From Bacilli bacterium (GTDB taxonomy: Bacteria > Bacillota_I > Bacilli_A > RFN20 > CAG-288), in the NCBI GenBank assembly GCA_017470005.1, contig JAFUFH010000091.1, positions 1 through 57,619 on the forward strand: a stretch of 57,619 nt of DNA, given 5' to 3'. The notes beneath the pieces are model-generated. The model saw nothing but the letters and a program-made list of their open reading frames with translations. It was not told where the DNA came from and searched no databases. Positions 20,069 to 28,025 of this stretch are shown here, piece after piece (the stretch's first letter is position 1; every line of letters begins with the position of its first letter). The position numbers and the translations under genes were made by a program.

Positions 20069-22279
20069 ATGAAGATCAACAATCAGATATATACTTTCAA
20101 CGATGTTAAGGATGTCTATTCGTCATACATTCATGATGAAGAAGATTTAAAGCGCATTGAGAAGGCGTATCTTTTTGCTGAGAAAAAACATGAAGGCCAA
20201 TTCCGTAAAAGCGGGGATCCTTATATCTCCCACTGTATCGGTGTGGCTTATATTTTAGCGGGCTTACAAGTCGGCCCTAAGACAATTATGACCGGTTTCC
20301 TTCACGATACGATTGAAGATACCGATACCACTAGAGAAGAGATCGAAAAAGAATTTGGATCCGAAGTTGCCACATTAGTGGAAGCTTTGACCAAAGTCAC
20401 TCGACTCTCCGATTATAAGAATGTCGAATTCACTGCCGAAAACCACAGAAAGATTTTTGTGGCGATGGCAAAAGACGTGCGTGCCATCATCGTCAAATTG
20501 GCTGACCGTCTTCACAATATGAGAACTCTTCAGTTCCAACCGAGAGAAAAACAGATAAGAATCTCTAGAGAGACTCTCGATGTTTATGAACCTATCGCGC
20601 ACCGCTTAGGTTTATATAAGATTCAAACCGAATTAGAAGAATTATCTCTTTGGTATTTAGAACCAGAAAAGTTTACCGAAATCGAAAATAAGATTGCGGA
20701 AGTAGAAAAAGATGCCAAAGCATCTTTAAGTGAATTAAGACAACAGCTCATCTCTATTTTGAATCGTTCTCACATTCCTTTCTCTATCTCTGCTCGTGTC
20801 AAAAGCGTCTATTCCATCTACAAAAAGATGTATACCAAGAATTACGCTTTTGATCAGATCTATGATTTGATGGCCCTTCGTATCATCACCGAAACGGAAC
20901 AGAACTGTTATGAAATCTTAGGCTATGTCCACGCAAACTACAAACCAGTTCCTGGACGTTTTAAAGATTATATCGCTATGCCTAAGCCCAATATGTATCA
21001 ATCCCTTCACACCACCATTGTCTCTAACAAAGGTCACGTCTTTGAAATTCAAATTCGTACCCAGGCGATGGATGAGACCGCAGAAGGTGGTGTCGCTGCT
21101 CACTGGCGTTATAAAGAAGGCACCAAATACGATCCTAAAGTCGAGCAAGTAGAAATTGAGAATCAATTGCACTGGTTCAAAGACTTTGTCTCCATGACAG
21201 AAGAAGGTGGAGATGGCAATGCTCGCGATTACATGGACTCTTTGTCTCATGACATCTTTGATGCCAATGTCTATGTTTTCACTCCCAAAGGAAACGTCAT
21301 CTGTCTTCCTAACGGCGCGACTCCTATCGATTTTGCTTATCGTATTCACTCCGATTTAGGCGAACACTTACAAGGAGCGAGAGTCAACGGTATCTTAGTT
21401 CCTATCTCGACTTCTTTAAAGACTGGCGATGTGGTGGAAGTCATCACCAATAAGAACTCTAACCCGAACTCTGAATGGCTCAATATCGCTAAGACCAACT
21501 TTGCAAAATCTAAGATTCGTAAATACTTGATTCACCAGAATGCGGATTATGTCAGAGAAGATAACATCAAAAAGGGTAGACAAACCTTGTTAGATTCCTT
21601 CCGTGAAAGAAAGATCAACATCGATTTGAGCAAAGTCTTAACTCGTCAACTCTTTGATAAACTCAATGTCAAAGATGCCGATGACCTCTTCTTGATGATC
21701 AACGGAAAGACCATTCTTCCTTATCAAGTGATTGAAGCTTCGGATCAAATCGTTTATGGCGGTAAGATGTCTGATGAAGAGATTCAATCTCAAATCAATA
21801 ACCGCGTCTACAAGAGAAAGAATACTTCCGATGCCGTCATCCTTGCTAATGGTGACACCGTCTTAACCTCTTTGGCCGCTTGTTGTACTCCTGTTCCTGG
21901 CGATGATATCATCGGCTTTGTCTCCACCGGACAAGGCGTGAAAGTTCACCGTGTGGATTGCCCCAATGTCAACCGTGAAGGCGTTCAAGACCGTTTGATT
22001 CAAGTTATGTGGAACCCCAATGTCACAAAGCTTGGAGAATACCCTGTTGACTTGGCGGTGGAAGGTCACGATCGCCCTGGATTACTTGTCGATATCATGA
22101 ATACACTTTCTGCTAATGATGCAAAAGTGAATAAGATTCAAGCCAAATATAACCCCTCTTTGAACACATCTACTATCTCTATGACCATCCTAGTTTCAGA
22201 GAAAGAACAGCTCTCTCACTTCCTCCATGCTCTCACCAATGTTAAAGGCGTTTTTGCCATCAAGAGAGTCCATCATTAA
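20069..22279 (+). CDS. rel: Bifunctional (p)ppGpp synthetase/hydrolase
   Basis: HD domain (LHDTIEDT), synthetase RFKDYIAMPK and YQSLHT, TGS, CC and ACT domains. Confidence 0.96.
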   Translation: MKINNQIYTFNDVKDVYSSYIHDEEDLKRIEKAYLFAEKKHEGQFRKSGDPYISHCIGVAYILAGLQVGPKTIMTGFLHDTIEDTDTTREEIEKEFGSEVATLVEALTKVTRLSDYKNVEFTAENHRKIFVAMAKDVRAIIVKLADRLHNMRTLQFQPREKQIRISRETLDVYEPIAHRLGLYKIQTELEELSLWYLEPEKFTEIENKIAEVEKDAKASLSELRQQLISILNRSHIPFSISARVKSVYSIYKKMYTKNYAFDQIYDLMALRIITETEQNCYEILGYVHANYKPVPGRFKDYIAMPKPNMYQSLHTTIVSNKGHVFEIQIRTQAMDETAEGGVAAHWRYKEGTKYDPKVEQVEIENQLHWFKDFVSMTEEGGDGNARDYMDSLSHDIFDANVYVFTPKGNVICLPNGATPIDFAYRIHSDLGEHLQGARVNGILVPISTSLKTGDVVEVITNKNSNPNSEWLNIAKTNFAKSKIRKYLIHQNADYVREDNIKKGRQTLLDSFRERKINIDLSKVLTRQLFDKLNVKDADDLFLMINGKTILPYQVIEASDQIVYGGKMSDEEIQSQINNRVYKRKNTSDAVILANGDTVLTSLAACCTPVPGDDIIGFVSTGQGVKVHRVDCPNVNREGVQDRLIQVMWNPNVTKLGEYPVDLAVEGHDRPGLLVDIMNTLSANDAKVNKIQAKYNPSLNTSTISMTILVSEKEQLSHFLHALTNVKGVFAIKRVHH

Positions 22280-22360: not shown

Positions 22361-22810
22361 TTAATTTGCATTATCAAAACAATCGTCGAGCTGCCTAATA
22401 AAACTCAAATTGGCACATACATCGCGAATGCATTTACATATTTTCGGAGTTGGTTCAAATCTAAATTCCAATCCATCAATTGTTGTGATTATTATGCGGA
22501 CATGAAGATAACCATAAAAAGATTTACATTTTCTTGTTAGTTTTACGGTTTTAACATCGTTCCAACAAATTGTTTGCTTTTTTGCTGATATGCCTTCTTT
22601 CCCGATGAACATTGGAACATTCCACAATCGAATAAAGGAAAGAATGAATAGCGATAAATCAGCAGCCCAAACAATCCCGAGCAAAAGAAGAATCACAATT
22701 AGTACATCTCCTTTTAAAAGCTTAAATGTCGGAATCGCCAAGAGCGGGATGAACATAATCGTCAACGATTGAAAGACACATAGAGTTGGTCTCGGAATAA
22801 ATCGCTTCAT
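22361..22810 (-). CDS. Small two-TM membrane protein, candidate immunity protein
   Basis: GGAGG RBS then ATG 22810 (MKRFIPRP...), ATGA overlap with the stop of an upstream start-less frame; two hydrophobic helices then a soluble domain. Confidence 0.65.
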   Translation of the reverse strand: MKRFIPRPTLCVFQSLTIMFIPLLAIPTFKLLKGDVLIVILLLLGIVWAADLSLFILSFIRLWNVPMFIGKEGISAKKQTICWNDVKTVKLTRKCKSFYGYLHVRIIITTIDGLEFRFEPTPKICKCIRDVCANLSFIRQLDDCFDNAN

Positions 22811-22977
22811 TTTTGCCTCCCCCTCCAATACACATTGATAATGCTATTGCTAATGCCAAGCAGGGCGTAGTCGTAGGATAAGGCGAATTGCGCGGCCTTA
22901 TTAAATTGAATATCGCCCCAAGGAACCGCATTTTCAAGCCAAGAAAGTCCAAACGCAATTCCAGCCGATGCACCCGC
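22807..22977 (-). pseudogene. Start-less toxin C-terminal tip remnant A
   Basis: 56 open codons AGASAGIAFGLSWLEN...YWRGRQK* with no start codon; stop overlaps the next ATG. Confidence 0.5.
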
Positions 22978-23092
22978 TTATGTTGGTCTTTAAATTGAAC
23001 TATAGCACAACATTGGGGTAAATGCAATGCTCCTATCTTTAATCTAAGCACTTATCAAACATGGATTTCTCTGTCAAAGAGAGATAATCGTT
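22978..23092 (-). repeat. 115-bp direct repeat copy 1 containing a sigmaA-type promoter
   Basis: 100/115 identical, gapless, to 26532-26646; minus strand TTGCAT (23027-23022), 17-nt spacer, TGc-TATAGT (23004-22999). Confidence 0.9.
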
Positions 23093-23789
23093 ATGCGGAA
23101 ATGATTTCATCCTCATCGGGTTGGACAGGAAAATCGTTGGTGCTATATATACTAAACCATCCGATAGGAGCAACATAATCCTTTATGTCAGAGTCCTTCA
23201 ATATTTTCTTTGGCGCAAAATTCGTGTTGAAGAACACATTTCCCAAGGAACCCACATCGCACATCTTTATATATCGGATGGTGAAGGAAGAATCGTCCAG
23301 CAATGCATATTCAAACTCACCGGAATTGTTGTATTGAGATACATAAGAGAACAAAGGAAAGAGATCATGAGATCTCAGCGGCTTTTTTCCCCATGTTCCT
23401 TCTGTGTTCTTTATCCGATTGGCTTCCATATGATAGGTCGTTTCGTCCATACTCCATTCCAAATATGCCTGCCCACGCTTGTACATATAATCAGCAAACA
23501 AAGGATCTACAAAATATGCCATTGACGCACTTCCGCTGGTTAAGGCATCAGGAAAAATTGCACACCCTCGCAAATCCGAAACAATAGTTTGCTTATCATA
23601 ATCCTCTGGCTGAATTGGGTTTATTTCCCCTTTCATTGGGGTTTTCTTATATCCACTTAAATCCGAATTATGGAGCTCAAGTCTAATAGAGTTCCCCCAA
23701 AACGAAACCATTACCACTGTGAAAAACAAGGTAAAGTGGGCAACAACTGCTCCCAGGACAATCAAGACGATTTTCTTCCATTTCTTCAT
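23091..23789 (-). CDS. N-terminally anchored extracytoplasmic protein, candidate immunity protein
   Basis: MKKWKKIVLIVLG... signal anchor at ATG 23789, which overlaps (ATGA) the stop of tip remnant B. Confidence 0.65.
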   Translation of the reverse strand: MKKWKKIVLIVLGAVVAHFTLFFTVVMVSFWGNSIRLELHNSDLSGYKKTPMKGEINPIQPEDYDKQTIVSDLRGCAIFPDALTSGSASMAYFVDPLFADYMYKRGQAYLEWSMDETTYHMEANRIKNTEGTWGKKPLRSHDLFPLFSYVSQYNNSGEFEYALLDDSSFTIRYIKMCDVGSLGNVFFNTNFAPKKILKDSDIKDYVAPIGWFSIYSTNDFPVQPDEDEIISA

Positions 23790-23950
23790 ATTAGACTTTC
23801 CCACATGTTTTTCAGCCAGTTCTTTGAAAGTTCCATATCCGCATCTTTTGCGTGTTCGAACTTTTCCCAACACCAGGGTGATATTTTATTATACGCCCTC
23901 AAGGTTTCATCCTCCGCTGTAATTGTTCCACCAAGAGCAAAGACATAGAT
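23786..23950 (-). pseudogene. Start-less toxin tip remnant B
   Basis: 54 open codons IYVFALGG...EHAKDADMELSKNWLKNMWESLI*. Confidence 0.5.
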
Positions 23951-23951
23951 C

Positions 23952-24437
23952 CTATCGTTTTATTTCTTCAAATGGTGGAACAAATCCATTGTAGAACAAT
24001 TTGATGAAACTTTCACCTTTTTCGTTATAAGGGACAAAAACTGCGGAGTTTTTTCTAATTCGATCTTCAGTACTGCTTTTTCCATCAAGCAGCACATAAA
24101 AAGTCCCATCTCGATACAAGGATACAATCTTGATTTCCTGAATAGAACTAATTGAAATTTCTTTCTTGAAGCCGAAAAAGATGCCACGTCGTTTAACCAT
24201 CGTGTCATCGAAACTAACGATATTGCATGATCTGTTGATGAAGATAATAATAAACACAAGAAGTAAAAGGCTTGAAAAATGTAACAGAATCCAAATTACC
24301 ATCGACAAAACAACTATTGGTTTTCAAGAAAAAGAATAAGCAACCAATACATTAAAACCTATCATAAGAGCAATGCCAATGAAGAAGATGAAAAGCCCAT
24401 CAAGGCCAACATAAATGCATTTCTTTCTGTTTTTCAT
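23952..24437 (-). pseudogene. Two-TM membrane protein interrupted by one in-frame TGA (24326-24324)
   Basis: ATG 24437 MKNRKK...AYSFS*KPIVVLSMVIW... continues in frame into the 118-aa ORF of the track. Confidence 0.65.
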
Positions 24438-24473
24438 GTTTTGTATTTTTCCTTCAAAAATCATCTAATAATG

Positions 24474-24557
24474 TCAACAACAATCGTTAATCCAGAAGGC
24501 ATAACGTTTTAAAACCAACAAAAGGAATCGTTTAATTTGTTTATCAGTCTTTCTCAT
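24474..24557 (-). pseudogene. Truncated 27-codon partner gene behind tip remnant C
   Basis: GGAGGTGG RBS and TGATG overlap; MRKTDKQIKRFLLLVLKRYAFWINDCC*. Confidence 0.4.
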
Positions 24558-24900
24558 CAAAACCACCTCCAGTGATTCATCAGCCAAAATTTCCAATCGT
24601 GTTCTTCATCATCTGAATCAAAGTAAATGTCAGCATTTCTAGCTGATTCATAAGACAGAAGGCTATAAGCAATTAGATGCCAAACCCATTCACTCATAAC
24701 TCTTTCTATATCGATTGGATATCCTTTTTTTTCAATTTTGAAAGAAATTTTCTCATCTGTTTAGAAGAATATTTCCATGTATCAATTTTTTAAATTTGTC
24801 CTTTAACGGAAGCTGATTTATCACTCAACTAATAATCAATGCGTTTACCATCTGACAAGTCTACATAATTATAAACATTTTCTGAATAATCAGATAAATC
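24557..24900 (-). pseudogene. Degraded toxin tip remnant C
   Basis: Reads ...KIDTWKYSSKQMRKFLSKLKK/GYPIDIERVMSEWVWHLIAYSLLSYESARNADIY...WRWF* across two in-frame stops and an A8 frameshift. Confidence 0.5.
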
Positions 24901-24987
24901 AGTAGGAGACTTAAGAAAATAGATACAATATGACCTATATTTTATCCCGCTGAAAAATCAATAAATATCAGCAGTCTCAAGAACACA

Positions 24988-25389
24988 TTAAAATTTAAAT
25001 AGAAAAATTTTATTATCTTCTGCCTTAATCATGGCGCGACCTTGCGTGGATAAGATGATGATTGGTCCATAGGAGTCTAACATCATCTTTCTTGCTTCCG
25101 TTGGTGCAATCGTGATTCCTTTTTGATAATAATCAAAAACTTGGAGAGTTCCATTCATATATTCAGTTGGTATGTGCTCACTATCCGTAATGGAAACCAA
25201 TGCTTTTGTTTTGCAAAGTGATTCAGTATCATGAGCAAACCTGGAAATAGCAATAGCATATTTCTTAGGATTCGAAAACTCAAAAGCAACTCTTTGTCGC
25301 CTTTCCTCAATGACACAGGCTTGTACGAATGTTTGCAATAGATTTCTTTTATCACTTTTATAGTCCGTCATTTTCTTCATCCTTTCCAT
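24988..25389 (-). CDS. Small soluble hypothetical protein, candidate immunity protein
   Basis: 133-aa ORF directly behind the RHS-core remnant; exact start among three close Met codons is uncertain. Confidence 0.6.
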   Translation of the reverse strand: MERMKKMTDYKSDKRNLLQTFVQACVIEERRQRVAFEFSNPKKYAIAISRFAHDTESLCKTKALVSITDSEHIPTEYMNGTLQVFDYYQKGITIAPTEARKMMLDSYGPIIILSTQGRAMIKAEDNKIFLFKF

Positions 25390-25429
25390 CTAAAACTGCC
25401 AGTAAGCAAAAATAATAATGCCAGTGTTT

Positions 25430-25621
25430 AAATCTAGGATCATAATATCTGCTTAAAAGATAATAGAGGGAACTTTCCTTTTCATAATAGTACCCCTATA
25501 TAAGAACGGATTGATTTGTCTGATGTATTCTTTAGTGGAATCAAGAAGTGTGGATGAAACTTCTCCATATGGTGAGTGTGCATATTTCACAATTGTTTTC
25601 CCTGCTTCTTCCCTGATTATT
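25430..25621 (-). pseudogene. RHS repeat-associated core remnant with a frameshift
   Basis: IVKYAHSPYGEV...INPFLYRG, then after a one-base shift YYYEKESSLYYLLSRYYDP, matching the RHS core pattern NPFRYRGYYYD.E.GLYYL.SRYY.P. Confidence 0.8.
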
Positions 25622-26476
25622 CTATATATTGAAATATTCAGCAAAACTTTGCTGATGAATATCCATCGCATAAGAATCAGGCGAAAAGTTTACAGTGAAC
25701 TGAATTCCACCTATTGTACCAAAATCGTCGATGGAAAATAATAGGGCGGCCGATTGTCCTCCACTCCAAGGATCGTAATCTTTTTCGAACATGCAGTATA
25801 TAGATCCGTCAACGGCTCTTCGGCACTTGGAAGAGTAAAATCCCCATTTATTCATCAAGGCCAGGAGCTCTGCATCAATATTTTCTTTTGGAAACTCGAT
25901 GATATTCTCGTTAGGAAGACAGATATCATAATCCTGTTCTCCTTCTTTTATATTCCCAAATGAATCATAGAAAGAATTCAGTGTAGTCAAATCGTAAATT
26001 TCTTCCACTTCACCGGTCAAAAAATCTATTTGAAAATTTTGAACATTATCACCATAACGTCTCAGTAGAAACTTGGTCCCCTGAAGTCCCCTGAATCCAA
26101 AATCTCCTTTGGAGGAAAAGAGTGTTCTCTGTTTAATAAAATCCCAATTTGTTGTATAAATTTCTATTCCACGAGATACATCATAAAAAAGAAATTCATC
26201 TTTAGAGACCGCAATAGTGCACATGCTATCATGATTATAAACAAATCTACCATCTGGGAATTGGTAAGTGCCTGTGTAATGATCATAAATAACGGAAAAT
26301 CCATCATCTGACCACTTTTTAAAATCTTCCATTAAAGCCGTTTTCTCTTCCTTGACATGCACTTTAGCTAAAGACATCATGACAAACATATAAACAAAGA
26401 ACGAAATCAAAAGACCAATAGGAATAAAAGTAAAAAAGGGCCACTTCTTTATCCTACGCTTATTCTTTGAAGTCAT
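25622..26476 (-). CDS. N-terminally anchored extracytoplasmic protein, candidate immunity protein
   Basis: GGAGG RBS, basic N-terminus plus one TM helix, 284 aa; directly downstream of repeat copy 2 promoter. Confidence 0.7.
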   Translation of the reverse strand: MTSKNKRRIKKWPFFTFIPIGLLISFFVYMFVMMSLAKVHVKEEKTALMEDFKKWSDDGFSVIYDHYTGTYQFPDGRFVYNHDSMCTIAVSKDEFLFYDVSRGIEIYTTNWDFIKQRTLFSSKGDFGFRGLQGTKFLLRRYGDNVQNFQIDFLTGEVEEIYDLTTLNSFYDSFGNIKEGEQDYDICLPNENIIEFPKENIDAELLALMNKWGFYSSKCRRAVDGSIYCMFEKDYDPWSGGQSAALLFSIDDFGTIGGIQFTVNFSPDSYAMDIHQQSFAEYFNI

Positions 26477-26531
26477 TTCCCCAACCTCCGATCATTAATT
26501 CATAAATCCACCAAAGGATGTACTGAACCTT

Positions 26532-26646
26532 TTATGTTGGACTTTAAGTAGAACTATAGCACAACATTGGGGTATATGCAACGCTCCTGTCTTCAACAGG
26601 AGCACCTATCAGACATGGATTTCTCTGTCAAAGAGAGATGATTGTT
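26532..26646 (-). repeat. 115-bp direct repeat copy 2 containing a sigmaA-type promoter and a perfect hairpin
   Basis: Minus strand TTGCAT (26581-26576), 17 nt, TATAGT (26558-26553); GCTCCTGT-CTTCA-ACAGGAGC inverted repeat intact in this copy. Confidence 0.9.
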
Positions 26647-26765
26647 CTGCTATAAGTTATTCGCATTTAATATGAAAGTTTATATTTTTTTACAATCTTT
26701 AATAAATTAAAGATTTTGAAAACGAAATGATATATAATTATGTGTCAATTAAAAGGAGGAGACGT

Positions 26766-28025
26766 ATGGCTCAACAATTCAAAAGACCACGCGGTACCAA
26801 CGATTATTTTGGAGAAGATGAAGCGATTCTTCAAAATATGAGAGATATCTTGAATCAAGAAACCGCGCTTTATGGCACACAATTCATCGAATTACCCATG
26901 TTTGAGGAGAATGCTCTCTTCCATCGCACGGTTGGGGAATCTAGTGATATTGTCACCAAAGAGACATTTGATTTAGAAAGAAGAGGAGATAAAGATTACA
27001 CCCTTCGTCCTGAATTCACCGCTTCTGTCTCTCGTGCTGTCATCGAAGGAAAATGGTATACCACTCCCGATATGCCTCTTCGTATCTCTTATTGTGGACC
27101 TGTGTTCCGTTATGAGAGACCACAGACGGGTAGACTTCGTCAGTTCAATCAATTCGGTGTGGAATTCATCGACACCAAGATTGATTTGAATTCTACTTTA
27201 GATGCTTTCCTTCTCTCTTTGAGAGGGGCGGAAAAAGTCTTGGGTTGCAAAGTCAAAGCCAAGATCAATTTCTTAGGATCTTTCGAATCGAGAGAAAATT
27301 ATAAGAAAGAATTACAAGGTTTCTTTGCTCCCATGATTTCTGAAATGTGCGAGGATTGCCAAAGAAGATATCAAATCAACCCTTTGAGAATCTTAGACTG
27401 CAAAGTTCAAGAGGACCAAGAGAGATGCAAAGGCGCTCCTAGAGTCAGAGATTATTTGAGCCAAGAAGACCAAGAAGAATTTGCCAATATTTGCAAAGCT
27501 TTGGATCAGATTGGAATCGAATATGTCATCGATGATGATCTTGTCCGTGGATTAGATTATTACACGGGTCTTGTCTGGGAACTCTATGAAGCGGACCACG
27601 AAAAGATCGGCGCTATCGGTGGCGGTGGAAAATATTCCTCTCTCATGAAGAATATCGGTGGCCCAGAAATGGAAGGTATCGGTTTCTCTTTGGGATTGGA
27701 AAGACTTCTCTTTGCCATGTCGGATGAGAGAAAGAAAGAATTGGCTTCCACTACTTCTATCGATGTCTTCATCATCGACTTCAAAAGAGATGGTACCAGC
27801 ATGGAAATTGCGGATAAGTTGAGAAAAGAAGGATATTCTGTTCTCTTCTCTTCCTTCTCTAGAGCTCTTGGTGGAGCCTTAAAGATGGCGGATAGAAAAA
27901 GAGCCAAGAGAGTCATCATCGCCGAAAGTGATGGCACCTATAAGCTCAAAGATATGTTTAGTCGTCAACAAGAAGAATTCGAGAATAAAGAAAGCTTACT
28001 CTTGTGTCTATTAAGTAAGGAGTGA
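26766..28025 (+). CDS. hisS: Histidyl-tRNA synthetase
   Basis: PRGTND, LRPEFTAS, FRYERPQTGR.RQFNQFG, LVRGLDYYTG, GGGKY; AGGAGG RBS favours ATG 26766. Confidence 0.95.
   Translation: MAQQFKRPRGTNDYFGEDEAILQNMRDILNQETALYGTQFIELPMFEENALFHRTVGESSDIVTKETFDLERRGDKDYTLRPEFTASVSRAVIEGKWYTTPDMPLRISYCGPVFRYERPQTGRLRQFNQFGVEFIDTKIDLNSTLDAFLLSLRGAEKVLGCKVKAKINFLGSFESRENYKKELQGFFAPMISEMCEDCQRRYQINPLRILDCKVQEDQERCKGAPRVRDYLSQEDQEEFANICKALDQIGIEYVIDDDLVRGLDYYTGLVWELYEADHEKIGAIGGGGKYSSLMKNIGGPEMEGIGFSLGLERLLFAMSDERKKELASTTSIDVFIIDFKRDGTSMEIADKLRKEGYSVLFSSFSRALGGALKMADRKRAKRVIIAESDGTYKLKDMFSRQQEEFENKESLLLCLLSKE

Follow-up and report, generated by a model that had tools for sequence, protein, structure and literature searches.

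What is a 115-bp sequence doing twice within one small gene island, each time directly ahead of the remains of a toxin gene? The question is raised by a 57,619-nucleotide (nt) stretch of DNA, contig JAFUFH010000091.1 of assembly GCA_017470005.1 from an uncultured Bacilli bacterium, which was analysed over its whole length and is called the window below. The two copies of the sequence, hereafter the module, occupy positions 22978-23092 (copy 1) and 26532-26646 (copy 2) and align without gaps with 100 of 115 positions identical, as a preliminary description of this DNA had reported. A repeat search stretches the pair to 119 nt at 87%, blastn-short gives E = 1.7e-27 for the match within the window, and it found no third copy in the 57.6 kb. 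The preliminary description took the module for a dedicated, portable expression and recombination unit. We judge, with a probability of roughly 85%, that it is instead a composite scar, in which the right-end stub of an insertion sequence (IS) of the IS3 family, IS150 group, was fused to the 3' flank of a gene for a 232-amino-acid (aa) protein, followed by recombination within an array of Rhs toxin genes. About two thirds of the module is the right end of the IS, and the rest is the flank of the gene.

The genes that lie between relA (20069-22279, plus strand) and hisS (26766-28025, plus strand) are all on the minus strand, and we therefore read the module on that strand. In this direction it consists of a weak TCTCT-N7-AGAGA stem, a second palindrome, TTGCAT-N17, TGTGc-TATAGT and a final ...CCAACATAA. 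Copy 1 starts at the TAA stop codon (23091-23093) of the upstream 232-aa gene, as had been noted before. The outer boundary that had been placed at CCAACATAA does not hold for copy 2, which runs 13 nt further (AAGGTTCAGTACA) to position 26519, the true terminus of the source element. The module can be divided as follows.

26519..26606, minus strand: copy 2, IS-derived part of 88 nt, defined by blastn to full IS copies and by alignment.
26607..26650, minus strand: copy 2, non-IS part of about 44 nt, defined by alignments to the sequence directly 3' of the 232-aa gene.
22978..23052, minus strand: copy 1, IS-derived part of 75 nt, the same stub, with 13 nt missing from the end of the inverted repeat and a decayed palindrome.
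23053..23096, minus strand: copy 1, non-IS part, the sequence 3' of the 232-aa gene together with its TAA stop codon.

The IS-derived part of copy 2 comprises the last 20 codons of the transposase gene orfB (GAPVEDRSVAYTPMLCYSST, then the stop codon) and a complete IS150-type right inverted repeat, and it ends with ...GGTTCAGTACA at 26519. By blastn it is 87.5-88.6% identical to full IS copies in three contigs from other metagenomes (L009 1689-1776, L013 and L015). It aligns to the final 88 nt of the L009 element, with similarity ceasing upstream of GGTGCTCC, and its translation can be compared with the transposase terminus GAPVFYRSIAYTPMLCYSSI, which is likewise followed by a stop codon. Because the module aligns to these last 88 nt, its promoter-like block lies within the 3' end of a transposase gene. 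The preliminary description had itself named the end of an IS element as the finding that would speak against its proposal, and this is essentially what the alignments reveal. Nothing more of the element is left in the window: a search for the left IS end gave no match there at up to three mismatches, and neither IS body nor transposase is present. The module is thus a fragment that lacks a second end and a transposase, and it is neither an autonomous element nor one resembling a miniature inverted-repeat transposable element.

The source element itself was recovered by scanning one genome per species for the 21-mer CCCCAATGTTGTGCTATAGTT. This yielded five contigs of a single metagenome-assembled genome of an uncultured Bacilli species, with every match at the end of its contig. 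The sequence there is ...GTCCAACATTAAGGGTTCAGTACA in all five, and beyond it they diverge, which indicates a multicopy element with the terminus ...CAGTACA. A scan of metagenomes added three more contig-end copies, from another metagenome, which have the same ...GGTTCAGTACA and diverge after it, and three contigs that reach further inward. The full-length element in L009 spans positions 136-1776 (1641 bp). Its orfA (241-900) carries helix-turn-helix (HTH) domains, and its orfB (912-1751), in the -1 frame relative to orfA, matches Pfam rve, rve_2, rve_3 and HTH_21 as well as the NCBIfam model NF033516 'IS3 family transposase' (259.8 bits, cut-off 160). The left end begins TGTACTGAACCCC. The two ends, TGTACTGAACCCCTCTTGTTGGAC and, reverse-complemented, TGTACTGCACCCCTAATGTTGGAC, form 24-bp inverted repeats in which 21 of 24 positions match end to end, and they differ little from the ends of Escherichia coli IS150, TGTACTGCACCCATTTTGTTGGAC and TGTACTGACCCCAAAAAGTTGGAC.

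Several characteristics therefore recall the IS150 group, of which the E. coli element is the reference: two open reading frames (ORFs) in 0 and -1 frames, an rve (DDE) transposase, a length of 1.64 kb, and inverted repeats of about 24 bp with the form TGTACTG-nACCC-n5-TGTTGGAC and TG...CA termini, the outer part of the module being the right end of such an element. When E. coli genomes were searched with the full IS, the matches were weak, and IS150 was the sole E. coli IS with detectable DNA similarity. The likeness to IS150 at the DNA level amounts to only about 65% over 300 nt, and the window holds stubs only. A search of a plasmid collection with the full IS gave no close relative, only weak matches to 'IS3 family transposase' genes. 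Judged by these features, the source element is an unnamed IS150-group IS of uncultured Bacilli. The genes beside 12 IS ends had no orientation bias of a kind that would favour promoter use.

The intact right end of this element (L009:1680-1776) is predicted to form two strong hairpins, with a minimum free energy of -41.9 kcal/mol and z = -6.15. The second of these pairs ACCCCAATGTTG with CAACATTAGGGGT of the inverted repeat and holds TATAGT in its loop. The subterminal ACCCCAATGTTG also resembles a box at the left end, ACCCCTCTTGTTG, and might serve the IS as an additional site for transposase binding or regulation.

The inner part of the module has a different history. These approximately 45 nt follow the 232-aa gene in every strain in which that gene was found (L012, L018, L020 and L021), and the corresponding part of copy 2, where the gene is gone, keeps a degenerate version of the last codon and stop (GCAGAA compared with GCATAA). 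The same non-IS piece and the same inner truncation point of the IS are found in both window copies, and we conclude that they descend from one junction between the 232-aa flank and the stub. The small TCTCT/AGAGA stem lies in this inner part, at 23068-23084 in copy 1 and at 26622-26638 in copy 2. The preliminary description had called the surrounding 27-bp hairpin block fully conserved; a 27-nt run is indeed identical between the window copies, but the stem is 5 bp long and its region differs among strains through substitutions and a 6-nt GACAGA tandem duplication inside the stem-loop (L018 853-858, L020 5597-5602, L021 416-421). The occurrence of this duplication in three strains argues that the stem region is unconstrained.

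The second palindrome belongs to the IS-derived part. With the form GCTCCTGT-TGAAG-ACAGGAGC it is perfect in copy 2 only (26583-26603) and decayed in copy 1. Its 5-nt loop reads CTTCT or CTTCA in the intact IS (L009 1691-1711 and L015) and the reverse complement, TGAAG or TAAAG, in all module copies. This swap looks like a single hairpin-mediated loop inversion in a putative ancestor of all modules.

To understand how one junction came to be present twice, the surrounding island must be considered. All of the following features are on the minus strand.

22361..22810, minus strand: gene for a 149-aa protein with two transmembrane (TM) segments, of the cognate immunity family of the tip toxin, with a 150-aa homologue in L023.
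22807..22977, minus strand: start-less 56-codon tip of an Rhs toxin domain (ORF 22810-22977, no in-frame start), with relatives found by HMMER.
23091..23789, minus strand: gene for the 232-aa membrane-anchored protein, followed by the module in L012, L018, L020 and L021.
23952..24464, minus strand: interrupted homologue of a 161-aa two-TM protein gene that is intact in L012, L020 and L021.
24517..24611, minus strand: remnant of the start region of a gene termed X, 91.7% identical to L018 968-1063.
24988..25389, minus strand: 133-aa ORF after the orphan Rhs fragment, immunity-like by position only.
25434..25603, minus strand: orphan Rhs core fragment (GKTIVKYAHSPYGEV...NPFLYRG, frameshift, YYYEKESSLYYLLSRYYDP), 94.7% identical to L020 2211-2381.
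25622..26476, minus strand: gene for a 284-aa membrane-anchored protein, a candidate immunity protein for the Rhs C-terminal toxin domain (Rhs-CT) of L020, where the rhs stop overlaps its start.
26460..26518, minus strand: C-terminal tip of an Rhs toxin (ILWWIYELMIGGWGNDFKE, then stop), 19 codons, cut by the IS; the uninterrupted gene in L020 ends ...ILLWIYELMIGGWGNDFKEEA, then stop.

The start-less ORF that copy 1 abuts had already been described as a toxin tip, and the database comparisons bear this out. An exhaustive HMMER search with the tip gave 15 relatives, and in each of them the alignment falls at the very C-terminus of the protein. When six of the 15 were scanned against NCBIfam, an Rhs-associated core domain was present in five: P0012 (1589 aa) and P0014 (683 aa), which have an Rhs core and RHS repeats in Pfam, and P0006, P0015 and P0017, which are orphan fragments carrying TIGR03696. 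The sixth, P0008 (200 aa), had no NCBIfam match. The 61 nt that follow copy 1 are toxin coding sequence, and the stop codon of the tip overlaps the ATG of the 149-aa gene (ATGA). The same arrangement is evident in L023, where the 1589-aa Rhs gene (P0012) is joined by an ATGA overlap to a 150-aa gene whose product shares 32% identity over its full length with the window's 149-aa protein (E = 3e-28).

The feature next to copy 2 is revealed by L020, a 47.6-kb contig whose synteny with the window extends past relA (97% over 9.6 kb). Its homologue of the 284-aa protein is 90% identical and is preceded by a gene for a 943-aa Rhs protein with matches to RHS_repeat (37.6 bits) and to TIGR03696 (63.4 bits, residues 705-792). 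The C-terminal domain beyond the core is about 150 aa long, and the stop codon overlaps the start of the 284-aa gene by 23 nt. The tip at 26460-26518 in the window likewise overlaps the start of its 284-aa gene, so that both window toxin tips overlap the start of the next gene. What had been described as a short tail adjoining copy 2 is there, but it proves to be the last 19 codons of an Rhs toxin gene. The match between L020 and the window starts with the very base that follows the IS terminus, and copy 2 thus marks a clean transposition junction located 57 nt before the stop codon of the toxin gene.

The toxin and immunity context suggested earlier is therefore well founded, through the Rhs tips and through the 284-aa and 149-aa genes as seen in L020 and L023. 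Read from their sequence and arrangement, these two genes are predicted toxin-linked immunity genes, and for the 232-aa, 161-aa and 133-aa genes an immunity role is assigned by position only. The window lacks the main rhs gene, and copy 2 is bordered by hisS instead. What is left is a decayed, toxin-less remnant of an Rhs polymorphic-toxin locus that keeps immunity-type genes.

The outer junction of copy 1 differs from that of copy 2. In both the window and L020, the stub ends 13 nt short of the IS terminus, three unmatched bases (GCG) follow, and the toxin sequence then begins with GGTGCATCGG. Two contigs, L024 and L025, are 97.9% identical to the window from position 22974 downstream and carry an uninterrupted orphan toxin (...SDRSGHFPVLAAILIGLGASAGIAFGLSW...) and no module. 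By its sequence, the junction of copy 1 is an illegitimate join, neither a transposition product nor a site-specific one. The toxin upstream of the 149-aa gene is intact in L024 and L025 and is cut at three different points elsewhere, with 56 codons kept in the window, 42 in L016 and 26 in L017. The immunity gene and its ATGA or GTGA overlap are kept across all five. Three different truncations next to an intact immunity gene indicate that the toxin has been destroyed repeatedly.

The gene orders compare as follows, where M denotes a module, M1 is copy 1 and its L020 counterpart, M2 is copy 2, and numbers give protein lengths in aa.

Window: hisS / M2-tip-284-Rhs fragment-133-X remnant-161 (interrupted)-232-M1-tip-149 / relA
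L020: Rhs-284-161-232-M1-tip-149 / relA
L012 and L021: 232-M-tip-284-161-Y
L018: 232-M-X

M1 and M2 are only 86% alike. M1 is closest to the M1 of L020 (94%), and M2 is closest to the copies in L018 and L021 (92%).

These relationships suggest a sequence of events. The IS would have landed in the 3' end of an Rhs toxin gene, at a distance of 57 nt from the stop codon and shortly ahead of the 284-aa immunity gene. Its body would later have been deleted, which joined the stub to the flank of the 232-aa gene and produced the single junction that is now present twice in the genome. Copy 2 keeps the initial transposition boundary with the toxin tip and the 284-aa gene, has lost the 232-aa and main rhs genes on its other side, and now adjoins the upstream region of hisS. 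Copy 1 keeps the 232-aa gene, and an illegitimate join, with 13 nt of the IS missing and three filler bases added, connects its stub to what remains of a second Rhs toxin, the last 56 codons, ahead of the 149-aa gene. Recombination between differently arranged Rhs arrays would finally have united the copies by placing '232-M-tip-284' upstream of '284-161-232-M1', and judging from the strain comparisons this is most likely how the two copies met. The standard displacement model for Rhs arrays permits such recombination (PMC3967940).

The preliminary description had also concluded that the module carries a promoter. TTGCAT-N17-TATAGT is indeed present on the minus strand of both copies, with TGTG one base before the -10 element and a single-base difference between the two spacers. 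The -35 and -10 elements lie at 23022-23027 and 22999-23004 in copy 1 and at 26576-26581 and 26553-26558 in copy 2. Both copies match the extended -10 pattern, given that TATAGT agrees with the consensus at five of six positions, is accompanied by TG, and stands 17 nt after TTGCAT, which agrees at three of six. A TGTG-n-TATAGT sequence is a good extended -10 element for Gram-positive SigA promoters, which use a -16 TRTG motif. Across the decayed copies, one of the 29 columns of the TTGCAT...TATAGT block is variable, whereas the remainder of the IS-derived part differs at 15 of 45 columns and the entire module at 23 of 89. Fisher p values are 0.0016-0.0054 whether or not the copy found through the 21-mer is included, in a comparison of six sequences that are related to one another.

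Precedent for such a role exists, in that IS3 ends often have a complete outward promoter within 120 bp, as experiments have confirmed, and at least a quarter of IS3 elements have functional outward promoters near their ends (PMC12095673). The stub resembles these cases by having its -35 and -10 elements within 120 bp of the right end (the signature ends 33 nt before the IS terminus), by facing outward and by having co-oriented genes downstream. It differs from them in that the IS body is gone and the stub stands alone. Given this precedent, the extended -10 element and the low variability of the block among strains, an outward promoter role is plausible, and we consider it more probable than not that the stub helps to transcribe the downstream immunity genes. 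A more ambitious version of this idea is that the IS3 right-end stub was co-opted as the functional promoter for orphan immunity genes in a locus without toxins, that its presence at two positions and before varied cassettes reflects selection for immunity expression, and that an IS-derived 'promoter cassette' is spreading by homologous recombination through polymorphic-toxin arrays. We regard this version as tentative and, on the present data, less probable than not.

Several observations weigh against the composite scar or against the promoter role that we attach to it, beginning with the small and interrelated set of sequences behind the variability comparison. The source of the inner 45 nt is one such point: among all loci compared, these nucleotides were present in module copies only, and no other source for them was found. 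The proposed order of events was pieced together from short and possibly incomplete metagenomic contigs, and alternative orders are possible. For the source IS, no target-site duplication was found around the L009 element (flanks ...GATA and CACT..., in the single full copy with both flanks), and neither an A6G-type motif nor any slippery heptamer was recognised at L009 820-960. With regard to the promoter, a generic consensus scan did not call the TTGCAT-TATAGT site, because TTGCAT agrees with only three of the six positions of TTGACA. In the intact IS, moreover, the block serves as coding sequence and as one arm and the loop of the strong hairpin with z = -6.15, and its origin therefore owes nothing to host promoter function.

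The last two points also speak for the most durable alternative, which accepts the identity of the IS3 stub but considers it a purely neutral scar, the motif being a coincidence and the immunity genes being either silent or transcribed from some other site. The motif was inherited from transposase coding sequence and an IS hairpin. Better promoter matches do occur nearby, but at chance level (14 sites of at least 9/12 in the region, with 15.8 expected), and another promoter-like site, TTGAAA-N17-GATATT at 22937-22909, stands between copy 1 and the 149-aa gene. Decay of the island itself, through the nonsense codon in the 161-aa gene and the frameshift in the Rhs fragment, is also consistent with neutrality. 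Weighed against these points are the significantly lower variability of the 29-nt block within an otherwise decayed stub, the quality of its extended -10 element, and the frequency of functional promoters among IS3 elements. On balance, we hold neutrality to be a serious contender with rather less than an even chance of being correct.

Far less probable is the dedicated expression and recombination unit of the preliminary description, in which a Xer-type half site would permit site-specific capture and release of cassettes. Its appeal lies in the downstream neighbours of the module, which do vary by strain (the 284-aa gene, gene X, or the toxin tip with the 149-aa gene), and in the 232-module-284 order of L012 and L021, which is the order expected of a circle or tandem junction. 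TTATGTT does resemble part of a XerD arm, and the module follows a cassette ORF as an integron attC site would. In contrast to Xer/dif and attC sites, however, the module has no partner arm (none was seen in either copy, as had been conceded at the outset), no central region and no integrase or Xer gene nearby, and no recombinase was called within 10 kb on either side of it. Only two cassette junctions carry it. The supposed arm, CCAACATAA, is nothing other than the GTCCAACA box that is conserved in inverted repeats of the IS150 type, and the bases that flank TTATGTT are those of the inverted repeat, conserved in E. coli IS150 too. The join in copy 1, with its filler bases 13 nt inside the IS end, is likewise not of a site-specific kind. 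What stands of this reading is that neighbours differ among strains; the site-specific system does not.

L012 and L021 were considered as circle or tandem junctions of the 3554-bp unit between the copies, and this was rejected for L012, given that its 161-aa gene leads into a different gene and not into the 232-aa gene. Deletion or duplication of 3554 bp via the two copies could nevertheless occur by homologous recombination, which is not site-specific. Such events should be rare, because the longest identical runs that the copies share are 24 nt (22997-23020) and 27 nt (23059-23085).

Two independent IS insertions, each truncated later, would also place a stub at both positions, and the IS is certainly multicopy and mobile in related metagenomes. 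An independently truncated stub is even known from another contig, L011 (AUXO017696092.1, 2242-2313), where the same IS right end has a different inner breakpoint; this contig is unrelated, and a 468-aa gene in the same orientation follows some 170 nt downstream of the stub. Nonetheless, we consider this explanation very improbable for the window, where the copies share their inner truncation point, the same 45 non-IS nt and a palindrome loop inverted relative to the IS, and where copy 1 has no transposition-type end.

Equally improbable is a structured small RNA or riboswitch-like leader, or an assembly artefact: hairpin-like palindromes upstream of genes invite the former, but Rfam at gathering thresholds gave no match anywhere in the window, the palindrome is decaying in copy 1, and each module folded whole as a single strand of 119-142 nt reaches only z ~ -1 relative to shuffled sequences (the small stem was not separately assessed), which provides no fold support for a selected structure, whereas the artefact is opposed by the same two-copy arrangement in an ENA scaffold and in a Logan contig that is reported in three samples, although scaffold and contig may share one source sample. 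A scan of the window for tRNAs and tmRNA likewise gave no match.

The composite scar thus reduces a puzzling repeat to two ordinary processes, insertion and decay of an IS3 element and recombination of an Rhs array, and makes the module a familiar mobile-element scar and not a new recombination device. The island can be compared with the orphan rhs arrays of Salmonella LT2 (PMC3967940), which also comprise start-less C-terminal toxin fragments, some with a piece of the core, each overlapped by a small gene, and whose arrangement also differs among strains through recombination. Unlike those arrays, the window contains no main rhs gene, and its toxin fragments are reduced to 19-56 codons or frameshifted, leaving an immunity-only remnant. 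The host, moreover, is of a low-GC Gram-positive type and not an enterobacterium. The locus is a natural example of a polymorphic-toxin region in which toxin genes were destroyed while immunity genes were kept. How orphan arrays are expressed after loss of the main gene is a question usually left open, and the stub, if its promoter is active, would be a concrete case of orphan immunity genes that remain expressed although the main toxin gene has been lost together with its promoter. For genome scanning more generally, repeated modules that appear to combine a promoter with a hairpin should first be compared with IS ends. As far as sequence comparison can tell, what is new here is an unnamed IS150-group element, an IS stub with a predicted outward promoter and, in an uncultured low-GC bacterium, an Rhs remnant reduced to immunity genes, each of a kind already known.

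Some further characteristics of the island deserve description. The 161-aa gene is split by an in-frame stop codon (24324-24326) into ORFs of 46 and 118 aa. Gene X, of which the window keeps a remnant, lies directly after the module in L018. In the orphan Rhs core fragment (within 25390-25621), the reading frame shifts after NPFLYRG and the sequence breaks off after RYYDP, immediately ahead of the 133-aa ORF; the counterpart of the fragment, L020 2211-2381, is located inside the rhs gene at the start of the TIGR03696 core domain. The cassette to which this fragment belongs (about 1.07 kb, 24525-25595) is absent from L012, L020 and L021. Searches of Pfam with eight island ORFs, the tip included, gave no significant family, and no paralogy was detected among the island proteins. 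Word-indexed protein searches found nothing but near-identical fragments for the tip (two relatives) and for the 232-aa and 284-aa proteins, the matches of the last being close relatives only; the toxin relatives of the tip came to light in the exhaustive HMMER search alone.

The toxin family to which the 56-codon tip belongs has its own distinctive features. An alignment of five relatives (A4: P0007, P0008, P0011, P0015 and P0017) defines a C-terminal toxin domain of about 190 aa. This domain matches no Pfam family, is rich in hydrophobic stretches of the G-x-x-x-G type (GTGIGSFTNGLI..GG.HAGW.GGQ.SG), and has two-TM proteins as its immunity partners. It may represent a candidate membrane-acting type of Rhs toxin.

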